From Candidatus Eiseniibacteriota bacterium (GTDB lineage: Bacteria > Eisenbacteria > RBG-16-71-46 > JAFGJU01), in assembly GCA_020349905.1 (NCBI GenBank), contig CP070702.1, positions 2,230,936-2,294,935 on the forward strand: DNA of 64,000 bases, read 5' to 3'. The translations under genes and the position numbers were made by a program. A model generated the notes under the pieces. It saw only the letters and a list, made by a program, of their open reading frames with translations, had not been told where the DNA came from and made no database searches. Shown piece after piece: positions 7,392-34,714 of the stretch. Numbering within the stretch: position 1 is the stretch's first letter; every line of letters begins with the position of its first letter.

Positions 7392-9110
7392 TTACCTCAG
7401 CAATACCATCTTCTTCGTCTCATTGTGCCCAGACGCTTCCAGCCGGTACAGATACACACCCGACGCAACAGCCCGTCCCGCATCGTCACGACCGTCCCAG
7501 GCAACCTCGTAACGCTGAGGTTTCCGCCAACCTTCAACAAGCGTGCGGATGGCGCGGCCCTCAATGTCAAGAATGCTTAGCACGACCCTCCCCGGCTCGG
7601 GCAATGAGAATCGAATCGTTGTTAGCGGATTGAATGGGTTCGGGCAGTTCTGTTCCAGCGCTGATACTGCGGCCGGCCGCTGGACTGTCTCCCCGACACC
7701 CACAAAACTCCCATCAGCTTCAATACGCTGTGCATAGACGTTGTATGGATTGGCCCCTCGAGTATCCCGCCAAACGATCATAGCTCCTCCCGCTCCATCG
7801 GAGGTCAACCTCGGCTCCTCCTGCTGTCCCGCCGCAGTGCAGATGGCCTGGCCGTTTACTTCCCACAGTCGGACCCCTGACGCGTCCCTGCGCTGGGCGT
7901 AAATGTCCGAATTGTCCCCGCTGCGGTAGTCCTGCCACGTGATTATCGCACCCCCCTCACTGTCCCGGATGATTCTAGGAAGGTTCTGCGAGACCGGGGC
8001 TGCAGAGATCACCACACCTCCGGGCGTCCACAGGTGTGATCCCGCCGCATCAACTCGTTGAGCGTAGATGTTCAACTCATCCGTGGGGCCCGTGTAATAC
8101 GATACCCATGTGACAAATGCACCACCTGAGCCGTCAGGGACGAGCCTTGGTTCGAAAAGTCTGCAGCATGCTGAAGCTATAGGGATTCCGCTGGGACCCC
8201 ACGTGGTATCGCCTGACGCATCTACATGCTGACCGTGTATGGCGGTACTCGAGTAACCGGTCTCCTGTTTCCACACGATTATCGCGCCGCCAGCACCGTC
8301 CGATGCAATTCTGGGACTCCAGTTGTCGTCCGCGAGATTCGAAAGATAAACGCCGTTAGGGATCCAGAGGAGGTTTCCGTCCCCGTCCACGCGCTGGGTG
8401 TAGGCGTGAAAGTTCCCGCCGTTACGCATATCTTCCCAGGTAATGACAGCGCCGCCAAAGTCATCCGGGGCAATATCGATGCACTGTTGGTCAAACGCCG
8501 CGTTACAGATTACCACGCCATTTGTGGTCCACAGCGGAGTGCCGGAGCCGTTCACTCGCTGAGCGTAAACGTCTTCGTCGCTACCGCGCCCGTCACCCCA
8601 CACAATGATTGCGCCGCCCGCATCATCCGAGACTAGCTGCGGAGAGAACTGATTCCCCGGGGCCATGCATACAGCCACACCGTCCACACCCCACAACAGA
8701 TTCGCTGAGCCGTCTATTCGCTGGGCATGTATGTCACCCGGCCTTTCCCACACCACGATCGCACCACCCGAGCCGTCCGACACAATTTCGAGTCCACCGA
8801 GGCCCCATATATCAACAGATCCGGAGATCTTGACTCCGCACGATGCCCACAACTCGTTCCCGTCCGCATCCACGCGTTGTGCATAGACCTTGGTCCCACT
8901 TCGCTCATCCTTCCAGGCAATGATCGCGCCGCCAGCACCATCAAACGCGATGACGGGAGCGTACTGCCAGCCGCCTGCTATACAGATGGGATTTCCGCTG
9001 TCTTGCCAGATGGCGATCGCAGAGGCAGGGAACGTCAGCGCGAGAGCAAAAAGCAACATTGCAGTTCCCTTGTAAGTCTTGACTCTCTCCACAATCTCAC
9101 CCCTTGGCAT
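7392..9110 (-). CDS. secreted beta-propeller-like repeat protein with T9SS C-terminal sorting domain
   Basis: Signal peptide (likely start MLLFALALTFPASAIA at 9059). About 8-9 tandem repeats of a roughly 48-aa unit (SDGAGGAIIVW.D.R.G..VYAQRVD..G..LW). C-terminal roughly 85 aa has NCPNPFNPLTTIRFSL...KKMVLLR, the T9SS type-A sorting domain. Confidence 0.7.
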   Translation of the reverse strand: MPRGEIVERVKTYKGTAMLLFALALTFPASAIAIWQDSGNPICIAGGWQYAPVIAFDGAGGAIIAWKDERSGTKVYAQRVDADGNELWASCGVKISGSVDIWGLGGLEIVSDGSGGAIVVWERPGDIHAQRIDGSANLLWGVDGVAVCMAPGNQFSPQLVSDDAGGAIIVWGDGRGSDEDVYAQRVNGSGTPLWTTNGVVICNAAFDQQCIDIAPDDFGGAVITWEDMRNGGNFHAYTQRVDGDGNLLWIPNGVYLSNLADDNWSPRIASDGAGGAIIVWKQETGYSSTAIHGQHVDASGDTTWGPSGIPIASACCRLFEPRLVPDGSGGAFVTWVSYYTGPTDELNIYAQRVDAAGSHLWTPGGVVISAAPVSQNLPRIIRDSEGGAIITWQDYRSGDNSDIYAQRRDASGVRLWEVNGQAICTAAGQQEEPRLTSDGAGGAMIVWRDTRGANPYNVYAQRIEADGSFVGVGETVQRPAAVSALEQNCPNPFNPLTTIRFSLPEPGRVVLSILDIEGRAIRTLVEGWRKPQRYEVAWDGRDDAGRAVASGVYLYRLEASGHNETKKMVLLR

Positions 9111-9407: not shown

Positions 9408-10952
9408 CTACTTCAGCAAGACCATCTTCTTTGATTCTTTGTAGCCAGGCCCCTCAAGCTGATAGAAGTACACGCCTGAAGCGACTGCTTTGCCGGAGTC
9501 GTCCCGACCGTCCCATGCAACGTCGTAGTGTTGAGCCTCCCGCCAGCCCTCCAACAACGTGCGAACTGGTCTACCAAAAACATCATATACCCGTAGCTCA
9601 ACTAAACCAGGCACGGCAACAGAGAATGTGATATGTGTCAGAGGATTGAACGGATTAGGATAGTTCTGCTTCAGCGCGAATGGCGCGGACATCGGACCTT
9701 GCTCGTCAACCGCAATTACCATGCCAGGGAAGAACTCCACACTCAAGCTGGCATAGTTACTGGCGATCCCACTACCTGCCGTCTCCACATAGTTCTCGCA
9801 AACCCCATAGAACGTATGAGACCCGGCCGCGATGTTATAAGCCTGCGTATGCGAGAAGGAGTTGAATTCCAGATCCGCGCTCACGGCTTCCACTCCGACG
9901 TTGCCGTCGTTGGATTCCCAGTCTCTCTTGTCGCTGGCGGCCACGATGATTCGGTCGCCCACATCAGAGACACATAGGCCTTCATATCTGACGATTGCCG
10001 TCCCCAGCTCCGTTGGACTGATTATCAGGGAGTCCATGACTACCGGCGCACCTCTCACGTAAACATTCGTCTGCGATACTCCGGTATGTTGTACGAAGGC
10101 GTCACCTGCCGACGTTGGAAAGAACTCCACGGTCAGGCTCCCGTAAAACGACGCAATACCGTCCCCGTCCGTCTCCACGATGTTCTCAGCAACGGCGTAG
10201 AAGTCATGCGAACCAGGCCCGATCGAATACATGCGCGAGTGGGAGAACGGCGTAGTGTCGAGATCGCTGTCGATGGCCTCGACCGCGGTGCAGCCATCGT
10301 TGCCGCTCCAGCTGGTTGTGTTGCTGGCGGCGAGAATGATGCGGTCACCCGGAGTTGACACGCACACCCCGTCGAACCGCACGAGAGCGTTACCGGAGAC
10401 ACCGACCGTTATGTTCCTCTGGGCGATCAGGGTGCTCGCCCCACGGACATCTTCGTAATCGACAACGATCCCCGTATGGGATACGAGAGGTACGTCCACC
10501 CCGTCCGGGAAGAACTTGACTACCAGGCTTCCATAGACGGAGGCAATACCTGACCCAGCCGTCTCTACAAAGTTCTCCCCGACAGCGTAGAAAGTGTGAG
10601 TCCCGGCGCTTACCGGATATACCCGGGTGTGTGAAAAGGACCTGATGTTTATATCGCTGTCATATGCCTCCATTTCAGTGTGGCCGTCGTTTGAGTACCA
10701 AAGGGGCGTTTTGCTAGCGGCGAGAATAATACGATCGCCGGGAGAGGACCAGCACTGGCCATCAAACTGGACGACGACGTTGCCGGCCTCAGCAACAGTT
10801 ATGATCTGCTGGGCTAATACAACCGGAGCCCCGCGCATGTTGACATTATCTCGTATGACTCTGCGATGCCAGACTCCGACGTCAGCAGAACAGGGTGCGT
10901 ATGCGACGAGGCATACAAACAGGCACGCGATGCCTATCACTGCGGTTCTCAT
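9408..10952 (-). CDS. secreted protein with three internal roughly 125-aa repeats and T9SS C-terminal sorting domain
   Basis: Signal peptide MRTAVIGIACLFVCLVAYAPCSA. Three copies of a domain (VRGAPVV...GN.VV.FDG.C.S.PGDRIILAAS......NDG...EA..SD.....FSHT..Y....G.H.FYAV.EN.VET.G.GIAS.YGSL.V.FFP). C-terminus is QNYPNPFNPLTHITFS...KKMVLLK. Confidence 0.7.
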   Translation of the reverse strand: MRTAVIGIACLFVCLVAYAPCSADVGVWHRRVIRDNVNMRGAPVVLAQQIITVAEAGNVVVQFDGQCWSSPGDRIILAASKTPLWYSNDGHTEMEAYDSDINIRSFSHTRVYPVSAGTHTFYAVGENFVETAGSGIASVYGSLVVKFFPDGVDVPLVSHTGIVVDYEDVRGASTLIAQRNITVGVSGNALVRFDGVCVSTPGDRIILAASNTTSWSGNDGCTAVEAIDSDLDTTPFSHSRMYSIGPGSHDFYAVAENIVETDGDGIASFYGSLTVEFFPTSAGDAFVQHTGVSQTNVYVRGAPVVMDSLIISPTELGTAIVRYEGLCVSDVGDRIIVAASDKRDWESNDGNVGVEAVSADLEFNSFSHTQAYNIAAGSHTFYGVCENYVETAGSGIASNYASLSVEFFPGMVIAVDEQGPMSAPFALKQNYPNPFNPLTHITFSVAVPGLVELRVYDVFGRPVRTLLEGWREAQHYDVAWDGRDDSGKAVASGVYFYQLEGPGYKESKKMVLLK

Positions 10953-21281: not shown

Positions 21282-21721
21282 GACAACTCCCCGTGTTAGG
21301 ATACCTTGAACTACCTTCCCGTCCTCCGAACCGACCCTCTTGGTCCGGGCCCAGAGCTGGTATCTCCCGGCCCTCAAGGTTGTGGCCGGTCAGGATTCTT
21401 ATTTGAAGGCCTTCCCAACTCAAACATATATGCTTGTACAGGTCAATAGGGCCGAGATTATCGTGTCGAGTTCCGCTCACGGGTTAGCTGCCCCACGCCA
21501 TGAATCGGTCAAGAGCGTTCACAGTATGCCCTCACATGCCGCATCCCATTGTTGCCAGGGTCGCTCTGTGATAGAGTATCGGGGTGCGTTGGGGGGACGG
21601 GGATGATGGAGATACGGTATTAGTCTCCGCGACCCGACGAATTGTGCCGGAATCCTGCAGCCTCATGAACAGTGTTGGGATTCAACAGTGCTTTTCTGTC
21701 CGCACTGAGTGAGGTGGGACG

Positions 21722-22369: not shown

Positions 22370-25249
22370 CTAATCCAGCGGTTCCCGCCTCACGAGCTTC
22401 ATGACCCTTTCAGCAAGGTATGGAGCGTCAGCGTCGTCCGGATTGATCGCGAGTGCTTTCTCATACTCCCCGAGCTCCTCGCGCAGCCGCCCGGTGATGT
22501 GAAAGAGATGACCCGCCATCACGTGGGTCGTGGCCCTGTAGTAGCGCTCGAGACTCTCCCTGGTTGCGGCCTGCTCCTCCGGCGATGCGCCCAGGTTGAC
22601 GACCAGGCCCTCGGGGAACCGTCTCGCCCTTGCTATCTCCGAGAGGTTCATCCACTCGCCGCGCTCCCGGATCATGTTCCGCGGCGCCCTGAACTCGACC
22701 AGCGGTCTGTCCTCTGTGTTCAGCAACCCCTCACCCACCATATCCTCGATGCCGCTGCCGTGGACGGCCAGGCAGTCCGCGATTGCCAGAGGATCGTTCA
22801 TCCTGACCGAAGCCAGATCAGCGTTCAGTCCCTCGTTCTCCAGCGCAAGACGTACTCTCTCAAGGTCGAGGCGAATGGGCTTCATACTGCCCATCGCCAC
22901 GCTGTATGCCTCGACCGTGTTGTTCATGTACCAGATGATCACGTGCGGAAATGCCGCTTCCAGCGTCCTCACGATCATCTTGTATTCCTCATCCGACAGG
23001 AAATACGTGGGCAACCAGAACGAGAGGATGCCGTCCTCGGTGAGCCGGCTCTTGCAGAGCTCGAAGTACTCCTTGGTATAGAGGCTACCGTTCCCTACGT
23101 AGCGCGGGTGAATCGAGTCTGAGAGGATGATGTCGTATCGCTCGTCAGTCGCCATGACGAAGTTCCTGGCATCCTCGATGACCAGGGAGACTCTCGGATC
23201 GCTGAGAACGTTTTGATTCATGTCCTGAAAGTACAGCGTCGCTGCCCTGATTACCGAGGGAGAGATTTCGACGCAATCGATGCGCTCGATGCTGGGATGG
23301 AGACTGATGGACCAGCAGGTCCCTCCGCTTCCGAAGCCGATCTGCATAACCTTCTTCGGGTCCGGATGCGAAAGAAGCGGAAAGTGAGCCTGCATCTTCT
23401 GTGTCACCAGGAAGCCGAACTTTGTTCCCGCCACGTTTAATCCGTTTATGTCCAGTACCCTGTGACCGCTTTGCGCCTGGTGCACGGTCACGGTCCCGCT
23501 GGCACTTTCGTTCACGTATATGAGTGCCATCCTCTTCTCGGCCGTGGCGTACATGTCGACGAAGACTTCCCGAGGGATGAGAGCGAAGGCGATGAGGACG
23601 GAGGCTGTGCCAGCAATTAGGGAACCAAGCTTCAGAGTCGCGCCCAGGTCACGGCCTTCCACAGACCTTGCCGTCTTGCCGGCCCGTACCGCCTTGCCCC
23701 CCCGTTTCCCGTGGCCCTTCCGTTTGGGCTTACTCCTTACGGTGCCTGCGGCGCCGTCGGGAGACGGGACGGGCGCGAACCACAAAATTACGATTCCGAC
23801 CGCCACGCTTACTGAACCTGTCGAGATGGCGGAAATCCTAACGCCCAGCGCCTCGACCAGGATGAAACTCGCGAGAAATGAACCTGCGATCGCACCGAGC
23901 GTGTTGATGCCGTAAACGTCACCCACACCGCGCCCCACGCGCGCCATGGCCCTCGAGTAAATCTTGGCAGCCAGCGGAAAGCTCGCCCCCATGAGAAAAG
24001 TGGGAACCAGAAGTATCACGAACGCAGCGCCCATCTTCCACATCGTGAATTGCCACCACGGGTCCGGCGTGTCGAGCGAAGTGCCGACTCCGCTCAGACT
24101 GCGCAGGAAAGATTCCCTGAACCCTATCAGCGGGGCAAAGAGAGGAATCAGAATGAGGACAACGATGCCGATGGAAAACTGAAACAGGCCGAAGAGACGA
24201 AGCCCGACACCCGGTCGGTCAAGGTATCTAGAGATGATGGCACTTCCGAGGGTGATTCCGAAAAGGAAACTCATCAGCACGAGGCTAAACGAGTGAACGA
24301 AGTTTCCGAGCACGTACACCATGATGCGCGTCCAGAGTACCTCGTTCGAGAGAGCCGCGAGCCCAGCCACTCCGGCACCCAGGAGGATGAGACGGGCCTC
24401 TCCGGGTAACGCTGCACCTGGGACCTGTACGGCCTTCTCTGCCGCTCCGACTTCCGATTCGCTACGCTGTGACCCGCTGCCCTTGCTGGAGCCTTGCACG
24501 GACGCAGGTGCGGAGGCAGGTGCGGCGACCCTTTCGCCTTCGACAGTCGCAGGTTCGATGGCCGCAATCCGCATTCCAACGGCTATTGCAATGAGCCCTA
24601 CCACTGTATTTATGAGGGCCGCAATGATGGAGGTCGTACGCATCCCCAGGAGTTCGATGAGGAAGAAGCCTGCCGCAAATGTACCCACCACCGCCCCGAA
24701 AGTATTCACAGCGTAAAGAGAGCCAACGGCTGACCCAAGACGCGGGAGCTTCCGCACGGCGAACTTCACGACCACAGGAAGAGTGGCTCCCATGAGCGTC
24801 GTGGGCAGAATGAGCGCCATCGTACAGAGGGCGAACCTGAGGAGCGTGAACGTGAAGAAGGAGGCCGAGAACTTCTGGAACGCAACAACGTGGACGGCGG
24901 TGACACCCTGCAAGATGGTCGGAAAGAAGACCGCGAAGAGCCCTATCACCAATTCCAGAACACCGTAGAGAACGAGAGGTGACATCCTACCGCGGTCCAC
25001 GTATCGTCCGAAGAGGAAGCTTCCGAGCGCAAGCCCGGCCATGAAGGCAGTCACGACGGCACCCATGGCGTAGACCGTGGCTCCGAACGTGGCGACAAGC
25101 ATCCTCGTCCAGACCACCTGGTAGACGAGCGCGCTAGCGCCCGAGAAAAAGAGAAGAACAAGAAGAAGCCAGCGTCTGGACCAGTCGGAGCGACCGGCGC
25201 CACCCTTTGGGTTACTCCGGCCAGCGGGTTTGCGGGAGTCTGTATTCAT
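22370..25249 (-). CDS. fused MFS-like membrane domain / spermidine synthase-like aminopropyltransferase with C-terminal TPR
   Basis: Two 6-TM blocks flank a Lys/Arg-rich loop. The C-terminal soluble domain with GFGSGGT...VEISP..IR.A...F......DPR..L...DAR...Y...D is the spermine/spermidine synthase fold. TPR-like repeats follow. ATG at 25249 gives a clean start; the six-frame ORF extends to 25315. Confidence 0.65.
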   Translation of the reverse strand: MNTDSRKPAGRSNPKGGAGRSDWSRRWLLLVLLFFSGASALVYQVVWTRMLVATFGATVYAMGAVVTAFMAGLALGSFLFGRYVDRGRMSPLVLYGVLELVIGLFAVFFPTILQGVTAVHVVAFQKFSASFFTFTLLRFALCTMALILPTTLMGATLPVVVKFAVRKLPRLGSAVGSLYAVNTFGAVVGTFAAGFFLIELLGMRTTSIIAALINTVVGLIAIAVGMRIAAIEPATVEGERVAAPASAPASVQGSSKGSGSQRSESEVGAAEKAVQVPGAALPGEARLILLGAGVAGLAALSNEVLWTRIMVYVLGNFVHSFSLVLMSFLFGITLGSAIISRYLDRPGVGLRLFGLFQFSIGIVVLILIPLFAPLIGFRESFLRSLSGVGTSLDTPDPWWQFTMWKMGAAFVILLVPTFLMGASFPLAAKIYSRAMARVGRGVGDVYGINTLGAIAGSFLASFILVEALGVRISAISTGSVSVAVGIVILWFAPVPSPDGAAGTVRSKPKRKGHGKRGGKAVRAGKTARSVEGRDLGATLKLGSLIAGTASVLIAFALIPREVFVDMYATAEKRMALIYVNESASGTVTVHQAQSGHRVLDINGLNVAGTKFGFLVTQKMQAHFPLLSHPDPKKVMQIGFGSGGTCWSISLHPSIERIDCVEISPSVIRAATLYFQDMNQNVLSDPRVSLVIEDARNFVMATDERYDIILSDSIHPRYVGNGSLYTKEYFELCKSRLTEDGILSFWLPTYFLSDEEYKMIVRTLEAAFPHVIIWYMNNTVEAYSVAMGSMKPIRLDLERVRLALENEGLNADLASVRMNDPLAIADCLAVHGSGIEDMVGEGLLNTEDRPLVEFRAPRNMIRERGEWMNLSEIARARRFPEGLVVNLGASPEEQAATRESLERYYRATTHVMAGHLFHITGRLREELGEYEKALAINPDDADAPYLAERVMKLVRREPLD

Positions 25250-25327
25250 GTTTGGACCGTCTCCTGTCTGACTCTTCGAACGATGGCCGATTCTAACTAA
25301 CGCCAATCCTCCCAACCCTACCCCGAG

Positions 25328-25446
25328 ATGCCCGTTCAGTCCGAGTCACCCATCTTGGGAGACACGTCGCCCGTTCTGCCGAGTTGCCGATTTTAGGAGA
25401 AACGTCGCCCGTTCTGCCGAGCCCCCCATTCTGAGAGACGCCTCGC
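25328..25446. repeat. array of 3-4 direct repeats (core CGCCCGTTCTGCCGAG) spaced 38 bp apart in a divergent intergenic region
   Basis: Perfect 20-bp copies ACGTCGCCCGTTCTGCCGAG at 25364-25383 and 25402-25421, with degenerate copies at about 25328 and 25434. Confidence 0.7.
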
Positions 25447-25476
25447 CGCAGGGCAAGCCCTCCATGTCACAAGTGC

Positions 25477-25505
25477 TTGATTTTCCAGCCACTATAGTGT
25501 ATAAT
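25477..25505 (+). promoter_or_regulatory. near-consensus sigma70-type promoter (TTGATT-17-TATAAT) upstream of the multiheme cytochrome gene
   Basis: AT-rich island in GC-rich DNA. -35 TTGATT, 17-nt spacer ending in TG, -10 TATAAT followed by AAA. About 150-nt 5' leader to GTG at 25662. Confidence 0.5.
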
Positions 25506-25661: not shown

Positions 25662-28343
25662 GTGAAGTATTTGCGAACGTTGGCTCTGTGTCTCGCCGTC
25701 ACGTGTGTGGCGACCGCTCCTCTCCTTCTCTCCTCCCTGACCGAGGCCCGCACACCCATCAGAAACGCCTTCTTCAACGTCTACCCTTCTGCCGAAGGCA
25801 CCCGCCTGGACGACCTGGCCAGCAGCCCGACTCACTGCGGGGTGTGCCACTTCGACTTCGACGGAGGCGGGCCCAGGAACCCGTATGGGATTGCAGTGGA
25901 GGTGGCTCGCAACTCCGGAATGTACTCCACGGACGAAGAGGTCATTGCCGCCATAGAAGGCGAGGACTCTGACAACGACGGTTTCTCCAGCCTGATAGAG
26001 ATTACCGACACCGTCAACTTCGACAACACCCCCACCTTTCCAGGACTGAATCAGAACAACATTAGCAGCGTCGTTAATGTGAGCGTTATCGAGATAAATA
26101 CTCATCTCACACCTACTGGCGGCGTTGACACGACCCCTCCCGCAGTTGTAGTGCTCTCTCCGAACGGCGCGGAAAGCTTCGATGCAAGCACCGTCAGAAA
26201 CGTCACCTGGTCTGCGTCCGACGCGAGTGGCATCTCCCACGTGAACATCTACCTTTCTGATGACAACGGCCTCACCTACATGCCGATAGCCAAGGGTAGG
26301 CCCAACGACCAGCCTTTTAGCTGGCACGTGCATAACCTGCCCGGTACGCAGAACCTGATTCGCGTCGTGGCAAAGGACAACGCGGGCAACAGCGGCTTCG
26401 ACGATAGTGACAGTCCTTTCACCATCATCCGCTATCCATTCGGCAGGGTGCCATCGACGCTGCGAGACGTAAGACTTTCCGGGACCCAGCCCTTAGAAGG
26501 CGGAATACTTGAAGACCCGGACGTGAGCTGCATAACCTGCCACGGCAACTACGACGTCGTTGCTGAACCCTGGCACAGCTGGAGAGGCAGCCCGATGGGC
26601 CAGGCAGCAAGGGACCCTCTGTTTCTGGCGTGCCTGGTGACTGCCGAGCAGGCCGCTCCCTCTGTGGGAGACCAGTGCCTTCGCTGTCACACCCCGGGAG
26701 GATGGCAGGAGGGACGCGCCGTCGACACGTTCGGGAACATGATAAACGCCAAGGATCGCCAGGGCGTGCAGTGCGACTTCTGCCACCGTGCCGTGGACCC
26801 TGACTACAAGCTAGGCATAAGTCCCCTGGAGGACGTCGCCGTACTCGACTCCCTGGACGCCATCCCCATGGACTACGCGAACGGCCAGTTCGTCACGGAC
26901 CCCAATCCGTTCAGACGCGGGCCCTTCTTTGACGCAGAGTCCAGCCACGGCTTCCTGGAGTCTCCGTTCCATCGCAAGTCAGAGATGTGCGGCACGTGCC
27001 ACGACGTCAGTAATCCCGTGTACGTGAGGGGTGCGACGCCTGACGAATACGTTCCGAACGCTTTCGATTCTCCGCACCCGGACGGGGATCAAGCCAACAT
27101 GTTCCCGCTTGAACGTACGTTCAGCGAATGGTCCATGAGCGAATATGCTTCCACGGGCGTTTTTGCACCTCAGTTTGCTGGGAACAAGCCGGACGGCATA
27201 GTGTCTACCTGCCAGGACTGCCACATGTCGGACGTTAACGCAAGGGGAGCCAGTGTACCGGGTACTCCGACGCGTCCGGACCTGCCGCTTCACGACTTCA
27301 CGGGAGGCAACTACTTCATCGCCGACATCCTGCCCAGCTTCTACCCCGGAGAGGTCGATTCGCTGAGACTGCTCGACGCCAAACTGAGAGCTATCGCCAT
27401 GCTTCAGAAGGCCGCGAGCATTTCGCTCATAGCGGGAGACGAGCCTCCTCATCTCAAGTTGACCGTGGTCGTGGTGAACGAGACGGGCCACAAGCTGCCC
27501 ACCGGCTATCCGGAAGGCAGGCGCATGTGGCTGAATGTTAAGGTCTACGACGACGAATCTAATCTAGTCTACGAATCTGGTGCCTACGACGAGGAAACTG
27601 CTCTTCTGGGGGACGACCCGGATATCAAGGTCTATCAGATAAAGCCGGGTATTTCTCGCCGGATATCCCCTGTTGTCAGCATCCCGTTCGGGCCGTCGTT
27701 CAATTTTGTCATGAACGACACGCTATTCTCGGACAACCGGATTCCGCCGAGAGGTTTCACCAACGCCAACTTCGAGGCCATACAGTCCCAGCCTATCGCA
27801 TACAGCTATGCAGACGGCCAATTCTCGGACACGACGACGTACCTGGTGCCTCCCACTGCGGTCTTCGCCGAGGTGAAGTTGTACTATCAGACAACGACCA
27901 GGGAATACATCGAGTGGCTGAGAGACCACAACGCCACAAACAGCATGGGACAGGACCTGTTGGACGCCTGGGCCAGGGAGGGAAAGTGCGCTCCGGTAGC
28001 AATGGCGACCGACACGATAAGCCTGCAGCTTCCGGTAGATGTTCCGATCAGAGAGGCCCCCGGCTTCCGCAACGCGCTGTTCCAGAACACACCCAACCCG
28101 TTTAATCCACTTACGAACATCGCCTATTCTCTTGAGTCGGCGGGACGAGTCAGCATCAGGGTCTACGACGTGAGGGGAAGTCTCGTCCGCACTCTGGTGG
28201 ACGCTGTGAAGCAGGCAGGGATGCACGAGGCCCTCTGGGATGGCCGCAGCGACGCGGGTGGGGCCGTCTCATCAGGCGTCTACGTGGTCAGGATGAACGT
28301 GAACGGCTACGAAGCGGTCCGCAAGGCCGTGCTCCTCAAGTGA
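25662..28343 (+). CDS. secreted multiheme (six CxxCH) c-type cytochrome with T9SS C-terminal sorting domain
   Basis: GTG start with GGAGGGAGG RBS. Signal peptide. Heme motifs CGVCH, CITCH, CLRCH, CDFCH, CGTCH, CQDCH. C-terminal 85 aa NTPNPFNPLTNIAYSL...RKAVLLK is homologous to the sorting domains of the two cargo proteins at 7392-10952. Confidence 0.8.
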   Translation: MKYLRTLALCLAVTCVATAPLLLSSLTEARTPIRNAFFNVYPSAEGTRLDDLASSPTHCGVCHFDFDGGGPRNPYGIAVEVARNSGMYSTDEEVIAAIEGEDSDNDGFSSLIEITDTVNFDNTPTFPGLNQNNISSVVNVSVIEINTHLTPTGGVDTTPPAVVVLSPNGAESFDASTVRNVTWSASDASGISHVNIYLSDDNGLTYMPIAKGRPNDQPFSWHVHNLPGTQNLIRVVAKDNAGNSGFDDSDSPFTIIRYPFGRVPSTLRDVRLSGTQPLEGGILEDPDVSCITCHGNYDVVAEPWHSWRGSPMGQAARDPLFLACLVTAEQAAPSVGDQCLRCHTPGGWQEGRAVDTFGNMINAKDRQGVQCDFCHRAVDPDYKLGISPLEDVAVLDSLDAIPMDYANGQFVTDPNPFRRGPFFDAESSHGFLESPFHRKSEMCGTCHDVSNPVYVRGATPDEYVPNAFDSPHPDGDQANMFPLERTFSEWSMSEYASTGVFAPQFAGNKPDGIVSTCQDCHMSDVNARGASVPGTPTRPDLPLHDFTGGNYFIADILPSFYPGEVDSLRLLDAKLRAIAMLQKAASISLIAGDEPPHLKLTVVVVNETGHKLPTGYPEGRRMWLNVKVYDDESNLVYESGAYDEETALLGDDPDIKVYQIKPGISRRISPVVSIPFGPSFNFVMNDTLFSDNRIPPRGFTNANFEAIQSQPIAYSYADGQFSDTTTYLVPPTAVFAEVKLYYQTTTREYIEWLRDHNATNSMGQDLLDAWAREGKCAPVAMATDTISLQLPVDVPIREAPGFRNALFQNTPNPFNPLTNIAYSLESAGRVSIRVYDVRGSLVRTLVDAVKQAGMHEALWDGRSDAGGAVSSGVYVVRMNVNGYEAVRKAVLLK

Positions 28344-28754: not shown

Positions 28755-29525
28755 ATGAAGAAGGCTATGGGAATTCTCCTCGGCCTGATGTGCGTTGCGT
28801 TCCTCGTGAGCCTCCTCGTTACACCTCAACCCAGGATTCAGCACAGAGGCTCTTCCGCCTTCGACGTGGCCCTAGAGCGGGCCGTTGACAGATTGGAAGG
28901 CACCGGCAGGTTCGTCCTTGCCGGAACGGCCACCCCTGTCGACGCACAGCTGCAGCCCACGTTCGATGGCAGATACACCTGCGATACGTATGAGGCGGCG
29001 ATGACCACGTGTGACCCGGCGCAGCCAGGATGCCTAACACACACAGCCGACCCAATGGGTCACACATGCGTGGCGGGTGAGTACACGTGCCAGGTGGCAA
29101 CGTGCGACACCTACGACAGGCAGCAGTATACGTGCGATCCCGCCAACGCAGACTGTCCCACTGCTACTCACACGTCTGAACCGTCGCCCTACAATCACAC
29201 TTGCGAAGGCCACACCTGTGACGGTGCCTTCACCTGTGATTTTACGGTTGACCCGCGTGCTTGGACCTGCGATGCGGCTGACGTCGACTGCCAGGACGTG
29301 ACGTTTAATGCGTTTATCTCAACGTGTGACCCGATGAAACCGGAGTGCCGCGAGAGCAATCCAGACCACTGTACCGCAGAAGGTTACTTCACGTGTATCG
29401 TGACAGAGGTAACCTGCGACCCGCTCGATCCCAACTGTCCGACCATCGATCCGAGACCGGGTTGCGCCACTGCGACAGAGCACACGACCTGGGGACAGCT
29501 CAAGACCCTACACATGAGGGAGTAG
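28755..29525 (+). CDS. secreted cysteine-rich repeat protein (about 25 Cys; repeated [YF]TC[DQ]x7-9TCDPxxPxC units)
   Basis: RBS GGGGGTGA. Signal peptide MKKAMGILLGLMCVAFLVSLLV. The mature part is dominated by 'TCD' tripeptides arranged in 4-5 degenerate repeats. No recognisable catalytic motif. Confidence 0.7.
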   Translation: MKKAMGILLGLMCVAFLVSLLVTPQPRIQHRGSSAFDVALERAVDRLEGTGRFVLAGTATPVDAQLQPTFDGRYTCDTYEAAMTTCDPAQPGCLTHTADPMGHTCVAGEYTCQVATCDTYDRQQYTCDPANADCPTATHTSEPSPYNHTCEGHTCDGAFTCDFTVDPRAWTCDAADVDCQDVTFNAFISTCDPMKPECRESNPDHCTAEGYFTCIVTEVTCDPLDPNCPTIDPRPGCATATEHTTWGQLKTLHMRE

Positions 29526-29672: not shown

Positions 29673-32099
29673 ATGAGAATGTGGACCCGAAACATCTCGT
29701 TTCTCTTTCTCGTCGGCGCCTCAACGAGGTCTCTCGGTCTACTGAGTGGTGACCTCTACGAGATACTCTCTTTCTTAGGCTTCCTGGTCTTCGCCTCCAC
29801 GTTTCGCCTGGGCCTGCTGAACGCCGGCGACGGGGGTCTCTTCCGGCTCATCTCAGCATTTTTTCTCGCAGGGGCAGGCATAGCCCTGTTCAGGTGGGGG
29901 GAGACAGGACTCCTTCCGCTGTATGTTTTTCTGTCAATATCGCTTCTGCTGCTTTTTTGGCGGAGAGAGTCTGAGGACGTCAGGCACCTGGAAAGCTACG
30001 TCCTGGCTCTGGCGTGCGTTGCGTTCCTAGGCGGGTTGGTGCGACTGCTTCCGGTTCTCTGGCACGCAGAGACAGACCTGGCTTCTCTCTTATCGTGGAC
30101 GGCGGAGAAGCTTGCCGAGGAAGACCGGGCCCTGGGGGCCACGACCATGGCGATGCCTCTTCTGGCGGCACTCTTGTTCCTCCTGTTCGTGCGGGAGGCG
30201 GCAGCTGAGAGCCGCCGCCATTCCCGGTGGATAGCCGGGGCCTTGGTTCTGGTGGCCGTCCACGTCTTCTACCTGGTCTTCCTGAAATACTACGCCCGCT
30301 GGATAACCTCTCACCGCCCGACTTGGGACTGGTTGATTCTCAATTCCCAGCACCTGTTTCTGATTCTGGGGAGCGTCGCCTTCACACTCATTGACAGAGG
30401 CAGGACAGTACGCTCCTTGATGCCCGCGTACTTCTGGCGAGCCGGCTACGTCTCAGCGGCCTTGTTTGTGGTGGCAGTGGTTGTTGCGCTGGCGCTGGCC
30501 TGGGCTCCGGCCCCCACGCACCGGCCGTACTGTGTGATGGTGTACGACGCCGGGTATCTCAACTGGAAGATTCCCGTCCACGGCACGTACGGAGAGCGTA
30601 GCGCGGGCATGTTCGGGATGTTTCCGTCGGCGCTGGAGGCCGCAGGTCTGGACGTCATCGCCTCGAATGACCTGACGCTTCTGGATTCACCGGCGGCGCC
30701 GGACTGCGTCGTAATGATAAACATCCAGGAGTATCTCGAGGAGGAGGAGAGGGAGAGGATCTGGAAGTTTGTCTCCGAGGGCGGGGGCCTGCTCTGCCTG
30801 GGTGACCACACCGGTGTGGCGGGCATCAGGGGTCCGTTTAACGACCTGCTCGAACCGGTGGGCATCCGGTTTCGATTCGACAGCTCCACGTTCTTCGGAC
30901 AGGGGTGGAACGAGGCTCTGGACTTCCGCCCGCACCCGCTCAACCGGGGCGTAGAGACGGCCGAAGATTTCCAGATATGGGTCGGCGCAACGCTAGACCT
31001 GGACATTGCTGCACGTCCCGTCGTAATCGGCCGCTACGGGTATTCCGACATAGGCGACGCCGCCAACATCGAGCGCTCCTATCTCGGCGACCGCAGGTAC
31101 AATCCCAACGAGCTTCTGGGTGACGTGGTGCTCGTGGCCGACGCTCGCTTCGGCAAGGGCAAGGTCCTGGTGTTCGGGGACACATCGGGCTACCAGAATC
31201 TCTCCCTTGTGCGCACTCTGGATTCGGTCGTCCGGTCGCTGGACTACTTGAGCGCCGGCGAGAGGTTCGGCCCCGGCGCTCTTGCGCAGGTCGGCTTACT
31301 TGTGTTGCTCCTTCTTCTCGTCACCGCTGGAGCCGCGTACGTCAAGAACCCCCTGCCCATCATCGCGGCGGCCCTGGGGGTGATTGTAGGGTCGGCGCTG
31401 TGTCAACTTGCTACACCCACGCCCAAACAGCTGACTCCGGCCTTCCTGGATGAGAGCCCCGAGTTCTCCTTCTCTCCAACGCCCCACGTCAAGAGGGAAC
31501 TCGCCGTGATGGACGTTTCTCACGGTGGTCACCACACGTTGCGGGGCTGGAAGGACAAGAGCATAGGCGGGCTTCAATTGAACCTGGCGCGGAACGGATA
31601 CTTCCCGTTGCTCAGGCCCGAGTTTCCTTACCAGGACCTCGAACGCGGGGCGGCTCTGCTTGTCATCATGGCTCCGACCCGCGTTTACAGCGAGAGAGAG
31701 ATAGATGCAATCGAGAAGTTTCTGAGAAGCGGCGGAAGGGTGATAATAAGTGTGGGCTTCGAGGAGCTTCGCGCCTCCGAAGGACTTCTCAACCGTTTCG
31801 GCCTCAGCGTGGCGAACGTGCCGCTGGGGCGACTCGAGGTCGCCTCCGAGGGCGACAGTCCCGGGATTCTGTTCCGGGAGGGATGGCCGGTTCTCTTCGA
31901 CAGCGGCGCTCCGGTGGAGGTCATGGTGTCTGAGTGGAACTACCCGCTCGTCGTGAGGAAGCCTGTCGGGGCGGGCAACATAATTCTCATCGGGGACAGC
32001 TCCTTTTTCCACGACGCGAATCTTGAAACGCGTGAACACTATTTCGAGGGGAACGTGGCGTTCTTCAGGCGACTCATCGAGCTTGGAAAAACGAAATGA
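29673..32099 (+). CDS. large polytopic membrane protein (about 9 N-terminal TM helices plus 2 internal TM helices) carrying two GldG/GATase1-like extracytoplasmic domains; paralog A
   Basis: Hydrophobicity pattern. Two soluble domains with motifs CVVMINIQEYL...FVSEGGGLLCLGDHTG and LLVIMAPTRVYSEREIDAIEKFLRSGGRVIISVG...NIILIGDSSFFHD. These resemble the GldG / 'ABC-type uncharacterized transport system' family pattern (VLVIAGP..FS..E...L..FV..GG.L). Paralogous to the next gene. Confidence 0.6.
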   Translation: MRMWTRNISFLFLVGASTRSLGLLSGDLYEILSFLGFLVFASTFRLGLLNAGDGGLFRLISAFFLAGAGIALFRWGETGLLPLYVFLSISLLLLFWRRESEDVRHLESYVLALACVAFLGGLVRLLPVLWHAETDLASLLSWTAEKLAEEDRALGATTMAMPLLAALLFLLFVREAAAESRRHSRWIAGALVLVAVHVFYLVFLKYYARWITSHRPTWDWLILNSQHLFLILGSVAFTLIDRGRTVRSLMPAYFWRAGYVSAALFVVAVVVALALAWAPAPTHRPYCVMVYDAGYLNWKIPVHGTYGERSAGMFGMFPSALEAAGLDVIASNDLTLLDSPAAPDCVVMINIQEYLEEEERERIWKFVSEGGGLLCLGDHTGVAGIRGPFNDLLEPVGIRFRFDSSTFFGQGWNEALDFRPHPLNRGVETAEDFQIWVGATLDLDIAARPVVIGRYGYSDIGDAANIERSYLGDRRYNPNELLGDVVLVADARFGKGKVLVFGDTSGYQNLSLVRTLDSVVRSLDYLSAGERFGPGALAQVGLLVLLLLLVTAGAAYVKNPLPIIAAALGVIVGSALCQLATPTPKQLTPAFLDESPEFSFSPTPHVKRELAVMDVSHGGHHTLRGWKDKSIGGLQLNLARNGYFPLLRPEFPYQDLERGAALLVIMAPTRVYSEREIDAIEKFLRSGGRVIISVGFEELRASEGLLNRFGLSVANVPLGRLEVASEGDSPGILFREGWPVLFDSGAPVEVMVSEWNYPLVVRKPVGAGNIILIGDSSFFHDANLETREHYFEGNVAFFRRLIELGKTK

Positions 32100-34714
32100 C
32101 CGCAGTCTGGATTGGCATACTCGTTCTGGCGTTCTCGTGGCTCAAAGCGCTTCCTCTATTTGAAGACGCCGGCGGCTCTTTGCCGTGGTTTCTGGTCGGA
32201 GTGCTCCTGGTAGTCTTCGGGCTTCGCAATCAGAACTTCTGGCAAGACGGACCGCGAAAGGGTCCTGCGGTGGCCGTTCTCGTTTCCTCCATGGTGGCGA
32301 TTGCCTGGCTGGGTGATCCTTTCCGGACGGGATTCCTTCTGCTGGCACTGGCTGCCCTTCTCACGCTGCTTCCTGTGCCGCGCGCAGCTGCACGGTGGGC
32401 CCTGCCGGGATTATGGTTCTCCGGAATGGTGTGCGTACTGCAGGCGGCGTGCGTCCCTCTTCTTTACTCGTTCTGCGCCCGTTATCACCAGACCGCCGAG
32501 CTGCCGTTCCTGCACGACCTGGTGTCCGGATTTCCGTCCTTCCCGTGGCTGGCGACATTGCTCTACGTCCCCCTCAAGATACTGAATCCCGACACGGCCC
32601 TTGGCGGGGCTACTCTGTATATGCCCGCCAGCGTGGACGTGATAGCGTTGACTCCCACCTGGGAGAAGCTGGGCCTCATCCCGGCCGTTCTCTTTGGGGC
32701 CGGCGCCGCTCCGCTCCTGCTCCTTCGCCCCGACTGGCGCAGGCGGTTGGGTGGGCTGCTGTTCTGGACGGCCCTCTTCCTGTACGTACGTCTTGTGCTC
32801 CTCTTCCTGCTGGTCGCCCACACGAGAAACGAGCGCGCCTTCTGGCTCTTTGACTTCGTCTTCCTGAGCTTCTTTCCGCTCGCCCTTTTGCTCGCGGCCT
32901 GGTGGCATCGGGGCTCTTCGGCTCCTGAGTCGCCTGAGCCCTCGGAGGTCGGGCCTCTCAGGTCGGGCAGGAAACGCTTCCTGGCCTGGCTGGCGGGTCC
33001 CGAGGAGAGCGAGAGTCATTTTGACGCGAGGCTCAGAACGGCACGTGTGCTCGTCGCGACGTTTCTCTTCGCAGGCGGGCTCACTGCGTTCTGGGGATTT
33101 CACGACGCGGGGATTCCGAAGGCCGGCCGCATTCTCATCGACGAAGGCCACAGCGACTGGGAGTGGACGACCGAACCCTTCGACACTCTCACGTACGGGG
33201 GAAAGTCTGGCTACAACTACTACTGTCTTGCCGATTACTGGAATCACTTCTACAGCGTGGAGACCCGAAGAGACAGCTTGACGTCCGAACTTCTGGCAGG
33301 TTGGGACGTCCTAGTCATAAAGACGCCCACGTCGGCTTTCTCGAAACAAGAAGTAGACGCCATCGAGGGTTTTGTCCGGCAGGGGGGCGGACTCTTTCTC
33401 ATAGGTGACCACACCAACGTATTCGGAACCAGTACGTATCTCAATGCTATCGCCGAACGGTTCGGAATGTACTTCAGATACGACGCCACCTACACCCTGG
33501 CCTCGCTCGGCCTCAGTCTCTTCGAGCGCCCGCATCGGTTTGCTCATCCGGTGATTCGTTTCATGCCCGATTACCTGTTTGCCACCTCGTGCACGATGTA
33601 TTCCCCTCCCCTGTCGGAGAACGTCATCCTTGGATACGGGCTTCGGGCCATGTACCTGGACTACTCGGAGGTGAGCTACTTTCCGACCAAGCAAGAGAAG
33701 TGGGACTACGATTTCGGGCTCTTCGTCCAGGCCGGAGGCGTGAGATTCGGCAAGGGCAGAGTCCTGGGTTTCACCGACAGCACCTGTTTTTCGAACTTCT
33801 TCATGTTCATGCCGGGAAAGCCAGAGCTGGCTCTGGCGTCCCTGGAATGGCTGAACAGAACGAACAGATGGTCGTGGCGCTACAGAATTTTCCTCCTCAC
33901 TTCACTTATCGGACTCGTGCTGCTCGTCATCGAGGCGCGTCGCAACACGGGCCTGTCCTTCTGGCAGGGAGTGATCGTATCGGGTACGTTGACGGTCGTA
34001 GTCCTTGGAGCCATCACCGAATCGCAGGTCGCCCGTTCCTACGCTCTGCCGCAGCCGCACCGTCCCCCGATCTACATCACCTTTGACCACGAACACGGGA
34101 ACTACCTGATCCCCGCCGAGACTCTGCCCGTCTCCAACTGGCAGAACTTCCAGACGTTCTACGTCTGGACCCAGCGCATGGGACTCGTTCCCAGAGACGA
34201 GAGCTCCCTGGAGGGAGCGGTCCGGAACAGCCGCGCTCTCGTGGAGATTCACCCCTACCGTTCCTTCTCCATCGAGGAGATAGACCTTGTCGTAGATTTC
34301 GTGCGGCGGGGAGGAACGCTCGTCGTGCTGGATTCCCCCGACAACTTCCGCAGTTCTGCGAAAACGCTCCTGGGGCCCTTCAGCGTATACTTTGACGGGG
34401 AGGTGGCTGATTCCCTGGCCGTGCTCGACGCTCAGGGCGACACCCTGGGAGTGCCGCGACGGGCCGTCGGTGTTAGAGGCGTGGCTCCCCTTCTTACGCT
34501 GGGTGACGGCCGGACTGTCATGGGCTACCGGCCCTTCGGAAAAGGTAGGGTCGTCGCGTGTGGGGCGTCGTACCTCTTCTGCTCGGAGTCCATGGGAAAC
34601 ACAGCCGTCGTACCGAACGCCCGGCAGAGGCGCGTCTTCAGGGCAGAGTACGACGTCTTTGAGAAGGTGGCCGGCCTGCGTGTGCGGGGACGTTACTACC
34701 TTCCTGACGAATAG
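32096..34714 (+). CDS. paralog B of the preceding membrane protein (same N-terminal TM module plus two GldG/GATase1-like domains)
   Basis: Start ATG overlaps the previous stop (ATGA at 32096-32099), indicating translational coupling. Domain motifs DVLVIKTPTSAFSKQEVDAIEGFVRQGGGLFLIGDHTNVFG and LVEIHPYRSFSIEEIDLVVDFVRRGGTLVVLDSPDNF are collinear with paralog A. Confidence 0.6.
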   Translation: MTAVWIGILVLAFSWLKALPLFEDAGGSLPWFLVGVLLVVFGLRNQNFWQDGPRKGPAVAVLVSSMVAIAWLGDPFRTGFLLLALAALLTLLPVPRAAARWALPGLWFSGMVCVLQAACVPLLYSFCARYHQTAELPFLHDLVSGFPSFPWLATLLYVPLKILNPDTALGGATLYMPASVDVIALTPTWEKLGLIPAVLFGAGAAPLLLLRPDWRRRLGGLLFWTALFLYVRLVLLFLLVAHTRNERAFWLFDFVFLSFFPLALLLAAWWHRGSSAPESPEPSEVGPLRSGRKRFLAWLAGPEESESHFDARLRTARVLVATFLFAGGLTAFWGFHDAGIPKAGRILIDEGHSDWEWTTEPFDTLTYGGKSGYNYYCLADYWNHFYSVETRRDSLTSELLAGWDVLVIKTPTSAFSKQEVDAIEGFVRQGGGLFLIGDHTNVFGTSTYLNAIAERFGMYFRYDATYTLASLGLSLFERPHRFAHPVIRFMPDYLFATSCTMYSPPLSENVILGYGLRAMYLDYSEVSYFPTKQEKWDYDFGLFVQAGGVRFGKGRVLGFTDSTCFSNFFMFMPGKPELALASLEWLNRTNRWSWRYRIFLLTSLIGLVLLVIEARRNTGLSFWQGVIVSGTLTVVVLGAITESQVARSYALPQPHRPPIYITFDHEHGNYLIPAETLPVSNWQNFQTFYVWTQRMGLVPRDESSLEGAVRNSRALVEIHPYRSFSIEEIDLVVDFVRRGGTLVVLDSPDNFRSSAKTLLGPFSVYFDGEVADSLAVLDAQGDTLGVPRRAVGVRGVAPLLTLGDGRTVMGYRPFGKGRVVACGASYLFCSESMGNTAVVPNARQRRVFRAEYDVFEKVAGLRVRGRYYLPDE

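Follow-up and report, generated by a model that had tools for sequence, protein, structure and literature searches.

A hexahaem c-type cytochrome with a type IX secretion-like C-terminal domain in Candidatus Eiseniibacteriota

The locus studied here lies in a 64-kb window (the whole stretch of DNA that was analysed, 64,000 nucleotides) and raises the question of whether a cytochrome with six haem-binding motifs, ending in a domain of the sorting type, is carried to the cell surface, and whether it would relay electrons there or act as an enzyme. The open reading frame at 25662-28343 on the plus strand is a real gene, and its product is 100% identical to the GenBank MAG protein JSW03_09735 (Candidatus Eiseniibacteriota bacterium).

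Organization of the protein and its gene

The protein is composed of the following parts:

25662..28343, plus strand: coding sequence of the hexahaem cytochrome, GTG start, 893 aa plus stop
25662..25748, plus strand: signal peptide, aa 1-29, found by inspection, with a predicted signal peptidase I cut after T-E-A
25749..26111, plus strand: N-terminal helical one-haem domain, aa 30-150, with HCGVCH at aa 58-63
aa 102-113, plus strand: EF-hand-like loop DSDNDGFSSLIE within the one-haem domain
26139..26429, plus strand: Ig-like beta-sandwich of Big_7 type, aa 160-256 (PF17957 23.7 bits, cut-off 24.1)
26514..27299, plus strand: alpha-helical pentahaem cap, aa 285-546, with CxxCH at aa 290, 339, 371, 443 and 517
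27318..28031, plus strand: beta-sandwich stem of the pentahaem module, aa 553-790
27477-27524, plus strand: family motif N-E-T-G-H-K-L-P-T-G-Y-P-E-G-R-R, aa 606-621, inside the stem
28032..28091, plus strand: variable linker from the stem to the C-terminal domain, aa 791-810, with poorly conserved columns
28092..28340, plus strand: C-terminal sorting-type domain, FlgD-Ig / T9SS type A, aa 811-893 (PNPFNP ... WDGR ... SGVY ... RKAVLLK)

A total of six CxxCH motifs were found, at residues 59, 290, 339, 371, 443 and 517, where the number expected from composition is 0.006, and all six were observed to be invariant among the 42 orthologues that were aligned. We regard the protein as a genuine multihaem c-type cytochrome, with haem attachment predicted from these motifs. 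Its N-terminus has the features of a Sec-type signal peptide, judged by inspection only, with a K/R n-region, a hydrophobic core and T-E-A ahead of R30. The sequence-only reading of this locus, which had described six CxxCH motifs behind a signal peptide, is borne out in both respects. The mature N-terminus R-x-P-I-R is kept in the orthologues, and the segment before it is variable and hydrophobic.

The one-haem domain contains seven residues that are invariant in the 42 sequences (H58, C59, C62, H63, D104, D106 and E113) and was modelled with pLDDT 62-83. It gave a weak match to NF041762, a GEGP dihaem protein, at E 2.7e-6, which is far under the cut-off of that model. As read from its motif alone, the EF-hand-like loop may bind calcium. 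The Ig-like domain that follows is all-beta in the model (pLDDT 72-91), and PF17957 is listed for many orthologues in the precomputed Pfam column. Residues N606, G609, H610, P613, G615, E618, R620 and W623 of the stem are invariant even at 37-50% identity. Position 681 is occupied by Asn in the present copy and by a nearly invariant His in the other orthologues. Residues 791-801 of the linker were modelled with pLDDT below 50.

More than 1,800 homologues were counted in sequence clusters, and among the 120 listed all but two are full length (804-930 aa). The listed relatives share 55-79% identity over their full length and belong to three candidate phyla, the Eiseniibacteriota, Latescibacterota and Krumholzibacteria. 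This degree of conservation across the three phyla points to strong purifying selection on the cytochrome.

Two features were found upstream of the gene:

25477..25505, plus strand: predicted sigma-70-type promoter, TTGATT-17 nt-TATAAT, about 155 nt before the start codon
25645..25653, plus strand: Shine-Dalgarno-like GGAGGGAGG, 8 nt ahead of the GTG, read from the sequence

The predicted promoter has 10 of the 12 consensus matches in a consensus scan; TTGATT-17-TATAAT is likewise present upstream of an orthologue with 79% identity (L002). An earlier claim that this promoter is nearly identical to that of the downstream operon stands for TTGA, the 17-nt spacing and TATAAT+AAA, which both promoters have in common, but not for the spacers and flanks, which are unrelated. 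Together the two promoters account for every TTGA-N19-TATAAT site in the 64 kb, where 0.01 would be expected. A cis-regulatory RNA was considered for the 155-nt leader and rejected, with no Rfam match and no conservation of the leader in the same orthologue. The search for an operon or conserved partner was equally negative in the seven contexts examined. In all seven the gene is monocistronic and its neighbours vary; neither a porin nor a quinol oxidase nor a partner cytochrome adjoins it, and no neighbourhood is conserved. This differs from ExtHIJKL of Geobacter, PtdA-PtdB of marine Alphaproteobacteria and the sPHC/lPHC proteins of cable bacteria, whose genes are clustered with a porin and other cytochromes, whereas the hexahaem cytochrome carries a secretion-type tail instead.

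The pentahaem core

On the basis of sequence, profile and fold comparison, the core of the cytochrome is assigned to the pentahaem 'mushroom' family of Thermochromatium tepidum cytochrome c552 and Geobacter ExtKL/MccSep. It has the architecture of this c552/ExtKL (PHC) family, in which an alpha-helical cap with five haems is followed by an Ig-like beta-sandwich stem. To this core are added the one-haem helical domain with its calcium-loop motif and the Ig domain on the N-terminal side and the T9SS type-A / FlgD-Ig domain on the C-terminal side. A first full-length AlphaFold model, made with 42 close orthologues, gave pLDDT below 50 in the haem core, and a good core model (pLDDT 92.6, pTM 0.91) was obtained with 31 relatives of 37-50% identity. 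Single-sequence phmmer searches of the core and the stem against the PDB gave nothing useful and only profiles gave matches; the core profile found 5ZE8 at E 9.9e-9 in four stretches, one of which fell short of significance, and their order is shared by the two proteins. The stem motif (H-x-x-P-T/S-G) aligns with 'PHAMPTGAP' of c552 and with 'GHSIPDGXP' of MccSep, where X is Sec325.

NrfA, HAO, octahaem and Mtr cytochromes had been named as possible classes for the haem domain, and HMM classification placed it in none of them but in the c552/ExtKL pentahaem family. For the NrfA/HAO/octahaem group, NrfB was matched only at E 0.03, the matches to NrfA chains were weak (E 0.015-0.04) and covered haems 4-5, and no CxxCK is present. 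For the Mtr group (MtrC/OmcA/MtrF), PF22113 reached 25.3 bits, short of its cut-off of 30, in a match confined to 93 residues and haems 1-3, and the protein has six haems and no conserved lipobox. The Shewanella decahaem cytochromes MtrC and OmcA are likewise multihaem proteins which mature in the periplasm and are then placed on the surface, a placement that is predicted for the hexahaem cytochrome. However, MtrC is a lipoprotein of a different fold that is exported by the type II pathway and docked on the MtrAB porin-cytochrome conduit, whereas the hexahaem cytochrome has neither a lipobox nor an adjoining porin or MtrA-like partner.

Two known members of the family differ from the present protein in several ways. 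Cytochrome c552 (PDB 5ZE8) is a low-potential pentahaem protein, soluble and of about 385 residues, without the extra haem domain, the Ig domain or the sorting tail; the present core is about 150 residues larger, and c552 has Ala where the hexahaem cytochrome has Tyr616. No function has been assigned to c552 (PMC11976967). MccSep/ExtKL (GSU2937-2936) of Geobacter sulfurreducens, a pentahaem selenoprotein polysulfide reductase, shares the five-haem cap and the Ig-like stem with its hairpin, and its G-H-x-x-P-x-G loop aligns with that of the hexahaem cytochrome. It is an enzyme found in the periplasmic fraction (bioRxiv 10.1101/2025.11.18.688581). Whereas MccSep is periplasmic and tetrameric and has Sec325 and a haem-ligating Cys239, the hexahaem cytochrome has an export-type tail, no such Cys and Tyr616 at the position of Sec325, and this Tyr is present in 42 of 42 orthologues. 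No Cys was found to be conserved beyond the twelve of the CxxCH motifs (C324 occurs in 64% and 16% of the sequences in two alignments and C776 in 10%). The score against NF040886 was 26.5 bits, where the cut-off is 250. The protein does not fit a polysulfide reductase of the MccSep type, with neither a catalytic Sec or Cys at the U325 position nor a Cys ligand like C239. Several His and Met residues in the core are invariant or nearly invariant and are candidate distal haem ligands.

The C-terminal domain as a candidate export signal

The tail (residues 811-893) scored 34.8 bits against PF13860 (FlgD_ig, cut-off 27), 23.2 bits against TIGR04183, a margin of 0.2 bits over the cut-off of 23.0, and 22.6 bits against PF18962, under the cut-off of 27. 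In line with the earlier reading of a T9SS sorting domain, the tail is of the T9SS type-A / FlgD-Ig kind, with borderline scores in the T9SS-specific models. About half of the listed orthologues have PF18962 in their precomputed Pfam entry, and NCBI uses the name 'T9SS type A sorting domain-containing protein' for the same-contig paralogue and for several orthologues. In the AlphaFold model six beta strands of the tail, with pLDDT 84-92, pack into a compact beta sandwich behind the flexible linker, and all aligned orthologues keep the tail at the extreme C-terminus. A profile search with the tail found the FlgD Ig domain at E 8e-5 and, weakly, the tail of PorZ at E 0.13. The overall plan is that of T9SS type-A cargo such as RgpB gingipain and PPAD of Porphyromonas gingivalis, with a Sec signal, a C-terminal beta-sandwich of about 80 aa and the PxP, G-x-Y and terminal K/R motifs. 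Unlike the cargo of Bacteroidota, the cytochrome belongs to a host outside that phylum, its tail is of the FlgD-Ig subtype and the cargo would be a multihaem cytochrome.

Domains of the same kind were found on two unrelated proteins in the window:

7395..7649, minus strand: C-terminal domain of a 572-aa protein (ORF 7392..9110)
9411..9665, minus strand: C-terminal domain of a 514-aa protein (ORF 9408..10952)

The first is 48% and the second 51% identical to the cytochrome tail over 85 ungapped residues, and the tail matches the two proteins in tblastn at E 1e-27 and 3e-27. Their PF13860 scores are 36.1 and 33.7 bits respectively, and their TIGR04183 scores are 22.6, just under the cut-off of 23, and 28.5. 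The sequence-only reading had described the last 85 or so residues as about 60% identical to those of two neighbouring T9SS cargo proteins. The homology is confirmed by tblastn, but the identity is lower than stated, and the two proteins are not neighbours of the cytochrome because 15-18 kb and about ten genes separate them from it. In related genomes the same tail was observed on other unrelated secreted proteins, which include an S8 peptidase and a PPAD-like deiminase, and this fits the expectation for a sorting tag. The Porphyromonas counterpart of the latter, PPAD, is an established T9SS cargo. Relatives of the pentahaem core carry other tails of extracellular type, namely Por_Secre_tail (5/32), dockerin (5/32), fn3 (2/32) and TSP3 (1/32).

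Genes for PagL, a TolC-like protein and AcrB are present in the window, which indicates a diderm host cell with LPS and an outer membrane. About 40 ORFs of the 64-kb window were scanned with Pfam and NCBIfam, and no T9SS core gene (SprA/Sov, PorV, PorU, GldK/L/M/N or PorK/L/M/N) was found among them. NCBI taxonomy places the Eiseniibacteriota outside the FCB group. With PorM/GldM sequences from the supplement of PMC7323717, a GC-biased back-translated motif, MINLMY[LIV]V, was scanned in genome contigs. The matches listed were almost all from Bacteroidota. A stricter pattern was scanned in metagenome contigs, and the 45 highest-GC contigs among the matches listed encode GldM of the Bacteroidales type, 40-60% identical to PorM. 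Both scans are uninformative on the Eiseniibacteriota lineage either way. In the open-access literature we found no report of T9SS in Eiseniibacteriota or Latescibacterota, no paper that ties T9SS to multihaem cytochromes, and incidental co-mentions only of T9SS with extracellular electron transfer. Surface export of the cytochrome by type IX secretion is considered likely, and the protein is probably located on the cell surface because its tail resembles a type IX secretion signal.

Possible roles of the cytochrome

The best explanation, to which we give a probability of about one half, is that of a secreted hexahaem c-type cytochrome with a T9SS-type tail which relays electrons between the envelope and an external redox partner. 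The apoprotein would cross the inner membrane via Sec and the six haems would be attached in the periplasm. The folded holoprotein would then be recognised by its C-terminal domain, be taken through the outer membrane via type IX secretion and end surface-anchored or released. There its redox partner would probably be insoluble or macromolecular. A relay appears more probable than an enzyme of the MccSep type because the six CxxCH motifs are canonical, His and Met residues are available as candidate ligands and the catalytic Cys or Sec is absent. Counted for export were the HMM scores of the tail, its occurrence on the two window proteins, the S8 peptidase and the PPAD-like deiminase, and the diderm envelope. 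Counted on the other side of the export and relay reading were the lack of a T9SS core gene in the window, the position of the Eiseniibacteriota outside FCB, the narrow TIGR04183 margin, the lack of an adjoining porin, quinol oxidase or partner cytochrome, the precedent of MccSep as a periplasmic enzyme and the Asn at His681.

A surface or secreted redox enzyme is the strongest competitor, although we consider it clearly less probable. Here the G-H-K-L-P-T-G-Y-P-E-G-R-R loop together with one haem would form an active site, and sulfur species, nitrogen oxides, peroxide or oxidised organic matter are candidate extracellular substrates. The loop corresponds to the Sec loop of MccSep, it is the most conserved stretch of the family with a motif invariant down to 37% identity, and Tyr616 sits at the Sec325 position. 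A lone gene would also suit an enzyme that needs no partner encoded alongside, and the only characterised member of the family is an enzyme (bioRxiv 10.1101/2025.11.18.688581). However, no CxxCK, Cys/Sec ligand or unusual haem motif is present, and the core offers several His and Met residues, invariant or nearly so, as potential distal ligands. Furthermore, an enzyme outside the cell would still have to receive electrons through the outer membrane, for which no evident route is seen.

It is rather unlikely that the cytochrome stays in the periplasm and works like MccSep, with the FlgD-type Ig domain as a structural or binding module and not as an export signal. The generic FlgD_ig model scores best and the T9SS-specific models lie at or under their cut-offs, T9SS reports for Eiseniibacteriota were not found in the open-access literature, and MccSep itself fractionates with the periplasm (bioRxiv 10.1101/2025.11.18.688581). 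Against this, the domain stands strictly at the C-terminal end, behind a disordered linker, and closes with a K/R-rich motif as is typical for type-A tails; the same tail occurs on unrelated hydrolases, including the PPAD-like protein, and relatives of the core bear dockerin, fn3 or Por_Secre_tail instead. Very improbable in our view is a role as building block of a 'nanowire', an extracellular polymer of cytochromes in which secreted monomers would stack their haems into a conductive fibre. Structural homology, including a long beta hairpin, has been described between c552-type pentahaem cytochromes and the archaeal filament AvECN (PMC11976967), and the predicted export and the promoter close to consensus would be in keeping with such a polymer.

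For the preferred reading of a secreted electron relay, a role in extracellular electron transfer is speculation. The wider proposal that in the Latescibacterota-Eiseniibacteriota-Krumholzibacteria lineages T9SS delivers the holo-hexahaem cytochrome to the surface, where it forms the outer terminus of extracellular electron transfer without an adjoining Mtr/Omc-type conduit, is doubtful at present.

To our knowledge, multihaem cytochromes of the cell surface are either lipoproteins exported by type II secretion or components of porin-cytochrome complexes, and the T9SS cargo we know of are hydrolases, adhesins and motility proteins. If the tail is not an export signal, the protein would be one more uncharacterised periplasmic cytochrome. 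If the export reading is true, a cofactor-loaded six-haem T9SS cargo would join the fields of surface cytochromes and type IX secretion; it would provide a new route for multihaem cytochromes to the bacterial surface and the first non-hydrolytic, redox class of T9SS cargo. The Tyr in place of the Sec or Cys of MccSep may represent a third functional flavour of the c552/ExtKL fold. The hosts are abundant sediment and soil heterotrophs which are usually called fermenters, and the family, with its constant architecture across three uncultured phyla, would be a testable candidate for their surface redox chemistry.

Haem core and protein family

The cytochrome carries six CxxCH motifs (aa 59, 290, 339, 371, 443 and 517), against an expectation of 0.006 at its Cys and His composition. 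All six are invariant, together with 176 further columns, in an alignment of 42 of the best database matches. By inspection, the N-terminus resembles a Sec signal peptide with a predicted cut after T-E-A29, and a variable hydrophobic segment is followed by R-x-P-I-R, which is kept in all aligned orthologues. The sequence-only reading was correct on the six motifs and is supported on the signal peptide. The same sequence, at 100% identity, is annotated as a hypothetical protein in a Candidatus Eiseniibacteriota MAG (2.69-Mb contig), and a 71% identical paralogue on the same contig bears the NCBI name "T9SS type A sorting domain-containing protein". Scoring was limited to 8,000 candidates and gave matches to more than 1,800 database clusters; all but two of the best 120 are full length (804-930 aa) with 55-79% identity, and their named sources are Latescibacterota, Krumholzibacteria and Eiseniibacteriota. 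Judged from the alignment, the invariance across the 42 orthologues is unusually tight for an exported protein found over several phyla.

Domains were scanned with Pfam and NCBIfam. Sub-threshold matches were also observed to an MtrC/MtrF domain, ExtKL and a GEGP dihaem protein, and PF18962 scored 22.6 bits on the tail, below its cut-off of 27.

Domain matches in the cytochrome
aa 160-226: Big_7, 23.7 bits, just below the cut-off of 24.1
aa 811-888: TIGR04183, 23.2 bits against a cut-off of 23.0
aa 825-879: FlgD_ig, 34.8 bits against a cut-off of 27

In a full-length AlphaFold model, confidence was good over the N-terminal helical domain, the Ig domain, the stem and the C-terminal sandwich and low over the haem core. 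A second model, of aa 255-800 and built with more diverse sequences, reached pLDDT 92.6 and pTM 0.91. By far the best structural match of this core is the pentahaem cytochrome c552 of Thermochromatium tepidum (PDB 5ZE8, Foldseek E 1.1e-14), which the core sequence profile also finds (E 9.9e-9). The profile match consists of four stretches in conserved order over haems 1-3, haem 5 and the stem motif, one of which is not significant. The c552 fold is common to Geobacter ExtKL (now MccSep), Gsu2801, cable-bacteria pentahaem cytochromes and PtdA, and a relation to an archaeal cytochrome filament has been proposed (PMC11976967; bioRxiv 10.1101/2023.11.21.568154).

MccSep, a tetrameric polysulfide reductase of the periplasm, has an active site in which Cys239 ligates a haem and Sec325 sits on a loop of the Ig-like stem (bioRxiv 10.1101/2025.11.18.688581). 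The stem profile pairs "GHSIPDGXPTPNR" of MccSep with "GHKLPTGYPEGRR" of the cytochrome, and Sec325 therefore falls at the position of Tyr616, which is invariant in 42/42 orthologues. In contrast to MccSep with its ligand Cys239, the cytochrome alignments hold no conserved cysteine beyond the twelve that bind haem. Taken together, the modelled fold and the profile match indicate a member of the c552/ExtKL fold family, whereas the tyrosine in place of Sec325 and the lack of an extra conserved cysteine led us to reject an MccSep-type enzyme.

Conserved alignment columns offer Met312, His429, His437, His544, His610 and His681 as candidate distal ligands. Position 681 (window 27702-27704) is Asn in this copy and in its closest orthologue (P0002, 79%) but His in the other 40/42, including the 71% paralogue, and this histidine is nearly invariant also in relatives at 37-50% identity. 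If His681 is a haem ligand, one haem of this copy would be differently coordinated.

The C-terminal tail and secretion

The tail lies at the extreme C-terminus after a disordered linker, is modelled by AlphaFold as a six-stranded sandwich and contains the motifs PNPFNP, WDGR, SGVY and a terminal RKAVLLK. In PDB it matches the Ig domains of FlgD (E 8e-5) and has a weak match to the tail of PorZ (E 0.13). When the last 94 aa served as tblastn query, two further window proteins were found, at 7392..9110(-) and 9408..10952(-) (E 1e-27 and 3e-27). Their relationship to the cytochrome tail, noticed earlier, holds without gaps over the last 85 residues, though at 48% and 51% identity rather than about 60%. 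Neither is a neighbour as had been stated, since they lie 15-18 kb away, beyond a kinase, a beta-lactamase-fold protein, a radical SAM enzyme, AcrB, a TolC-like protein, PagL and a spermidine-synthase fusion. These two proteins (572 and 514 aa) are encoded adjacent to each other; the tail is their sole recognisable domain, with 65% identity between them (55/85 residues), and their N-terminal parts have no family match.

The same tail occurs on a 2,475-aa S8 peptidase in a Latescibacteria genome, and a 597-aa protein joins PAD_porph (PPAD-like; a Porphyromonas-type peptidylarginine deiminase domain) to the FlgD-Ig tail (L125, 12146-13939) in a 6.45-Mb genome that also has a cytochrome orthologue. 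Both proteins behave like cargo whose tail is a portable sorting tag. PPAD of P. gingivalis is a T9SS cargo, so the PAD_porph protein gives an independent hint, by analogy, that the tail may have a T9SS-sorting role in this lineage too.

In an exhaustive search with aa 1-800, aa 260-790 emerged as an independent module, present in many proteins by itself or joined to other tails; at E below 1e-30 the 800-aa query has 943 matching clusters, among them multi-repeat proteins that hit only its Ig domain. Scanning 31 core relatives and the tail-less window core (32 sequences) gave Por_Secre_tail in 5, dockerin in 5, a MopE-type metal motif in 3, FlgD_ig in 3, fn3 in 2 and TSP3 in 1, and these appended domains are of extracytoplasmic or surface type.

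PagL, TolC-like and AcrB genes in the window point to an outer membrane with LPS. No T9SS core genes were found within the 64-kb window, and the library searched held no literature linking Eiseniibacteriota or Latescibacterota with T9SS. In two GldM searches aimed at this lineage (genome and metagenome contigs), almost all of the matches listed were from Bacteroidota, an outcome that speaks neither for nor against T9SS in the lineage. On this evidence T9SS export would be the best reading of the tail.

Promoter and surrounding genes

Features at the cytochrome gene
25477-25505, +: putative cytochrome promoter TTGATT-17-TATAAT, consensus match
8 nt 5' of the GTG, +: ribosome-binding site GGAGGGAGG, read from the sequence
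25662..28343, +: cytochrome ORF, GTG start, 893 aa
28587-28615, +: second putative promoter of the same consensus, ahead of the Cys-rich gene 28755-29525

The two promoters had been described as nearly identical. Their likeness is confined to TTGA, a spacing of 17 nt and TATAAT with AAA directly after it, the rest being unrelated; TTGA-N19-TATAAT occurs at only these two sites in the 64 kb, and TTGATT-17-TATAAT also precedes the 79% orthologue. They therefore look more like ordinary strong housekeeping promoters than like a regulatory element in common. The 155-nt cytochrome leader has zero Rfam matches and no conservation in comparison with the 79% orthologue. A 38-nt unit is present in three tandem copies (25341-25454; 100%, 84% and 63% identity to the first copy) in the divergent intergenic region and stops 22 nt short of the cytochrome promoter's -35 hexamer. 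The 20-mer ACGTCGCCCGTTCTGCCGAG has exactly two copies in the window, both within this array (0.01 expected). The array may be an operator array; the L001 and L002 orthologues have no such array upstream.

Other genes in the window
1963-3705 and 3270-4478, -: long ORFs overlapping by about 430 nt, one an MFS transporter (match from aa 158; upstream start probably over-extended), the other Ycf48-like/BNR-repeat
16621-19767, -: AcrB-type RND pump, directly following the TolC-like gene
19800-21377, -: TolC-like outer-membrane factor; among ORFs of at least 200 aa, none between or beside the pair was recognised as a membrane-fusion (adaptor) gene
22370-25315, -: MFS-like multi-pass membrane domain fused to a spermidine/spermine synthase domain, 981 aa, divergent from the cytochrome
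28755-29525, +: 256 aa, with a signal peptide and 21 cysteines; nine T-C-D motifs recur as a loose T-C-D-P-x-x-x-x-C repeat; no match in Pfam or NCBIfam; possibly a secreted protein that binds metal or is rich in disulfides
29673-32099 and 32096-34714, +: large membrane proteins of 808 and 872 aa, both polytopic, encoded 3' of the Cys-rich gene, with DUF4350/ABC_transp_aux (GldG-like)/IFT52-GIFT domains and a 4-nt CDS overlap

The last pair is the "downstream unknown operon" of the sequence-only reading and has no link to the cytochrome in the other genomes examined.

Possible role of the cytochrome

The cytochrome gene stands alone amid unrelated neighbours in 7/7 contexts (the window and the orthologue loci L001-L003 and L124-L126), and no recurrent porin, partner cytochrome or maturation gene was found over them. 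Only one kind of gene recurs nearby, a Ser/Thr kinase with C-terminal TPR repeats, which lies within 12 kb in 4/7 and directly adjacent in two. Its proximity may be due to chance, since kinases of this type are common in these genomes.

Ser/Thr kinase-TPR genes near the cytochrome
window: 11456-13795
L002: 2958-5075
L003: 6657-9584
L124: 9759-11882

With no porin, partner cytochrome or maturation gene recurring, function was judged from the protein alone. An electron relay at the cell surface seems the most likely role: all sites are canonical CxxCH, several conserved His and Met residues are on hand as possible distal ligands, a catalytic Cys, Sec or Lys is absent, and the added haem domain could act as an electron entry or exit point. 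In the main rival reading, the invariant G-H-K-L-P-T-G-Y-P-E-G-R-R loop would be the centre of a redox enzyme at the cell surface. Extracellular electron transfer would be plausible.

Published counts of secreted multihaem cytochromes exist for Krumholzibacteriota and for the sister phylum Effluviviacota (PMC11495043, PMC11323493), and the c552/ExtKL fold and T9SS tails are each known separately; no paper holding both T9SS and multihaem was found in the library searched. What appears to be new is the predicted fusion of this fold with a T9SS-type tail, plus an additional haem domain and Ig domain, in a family that is both large and tightly conserved.
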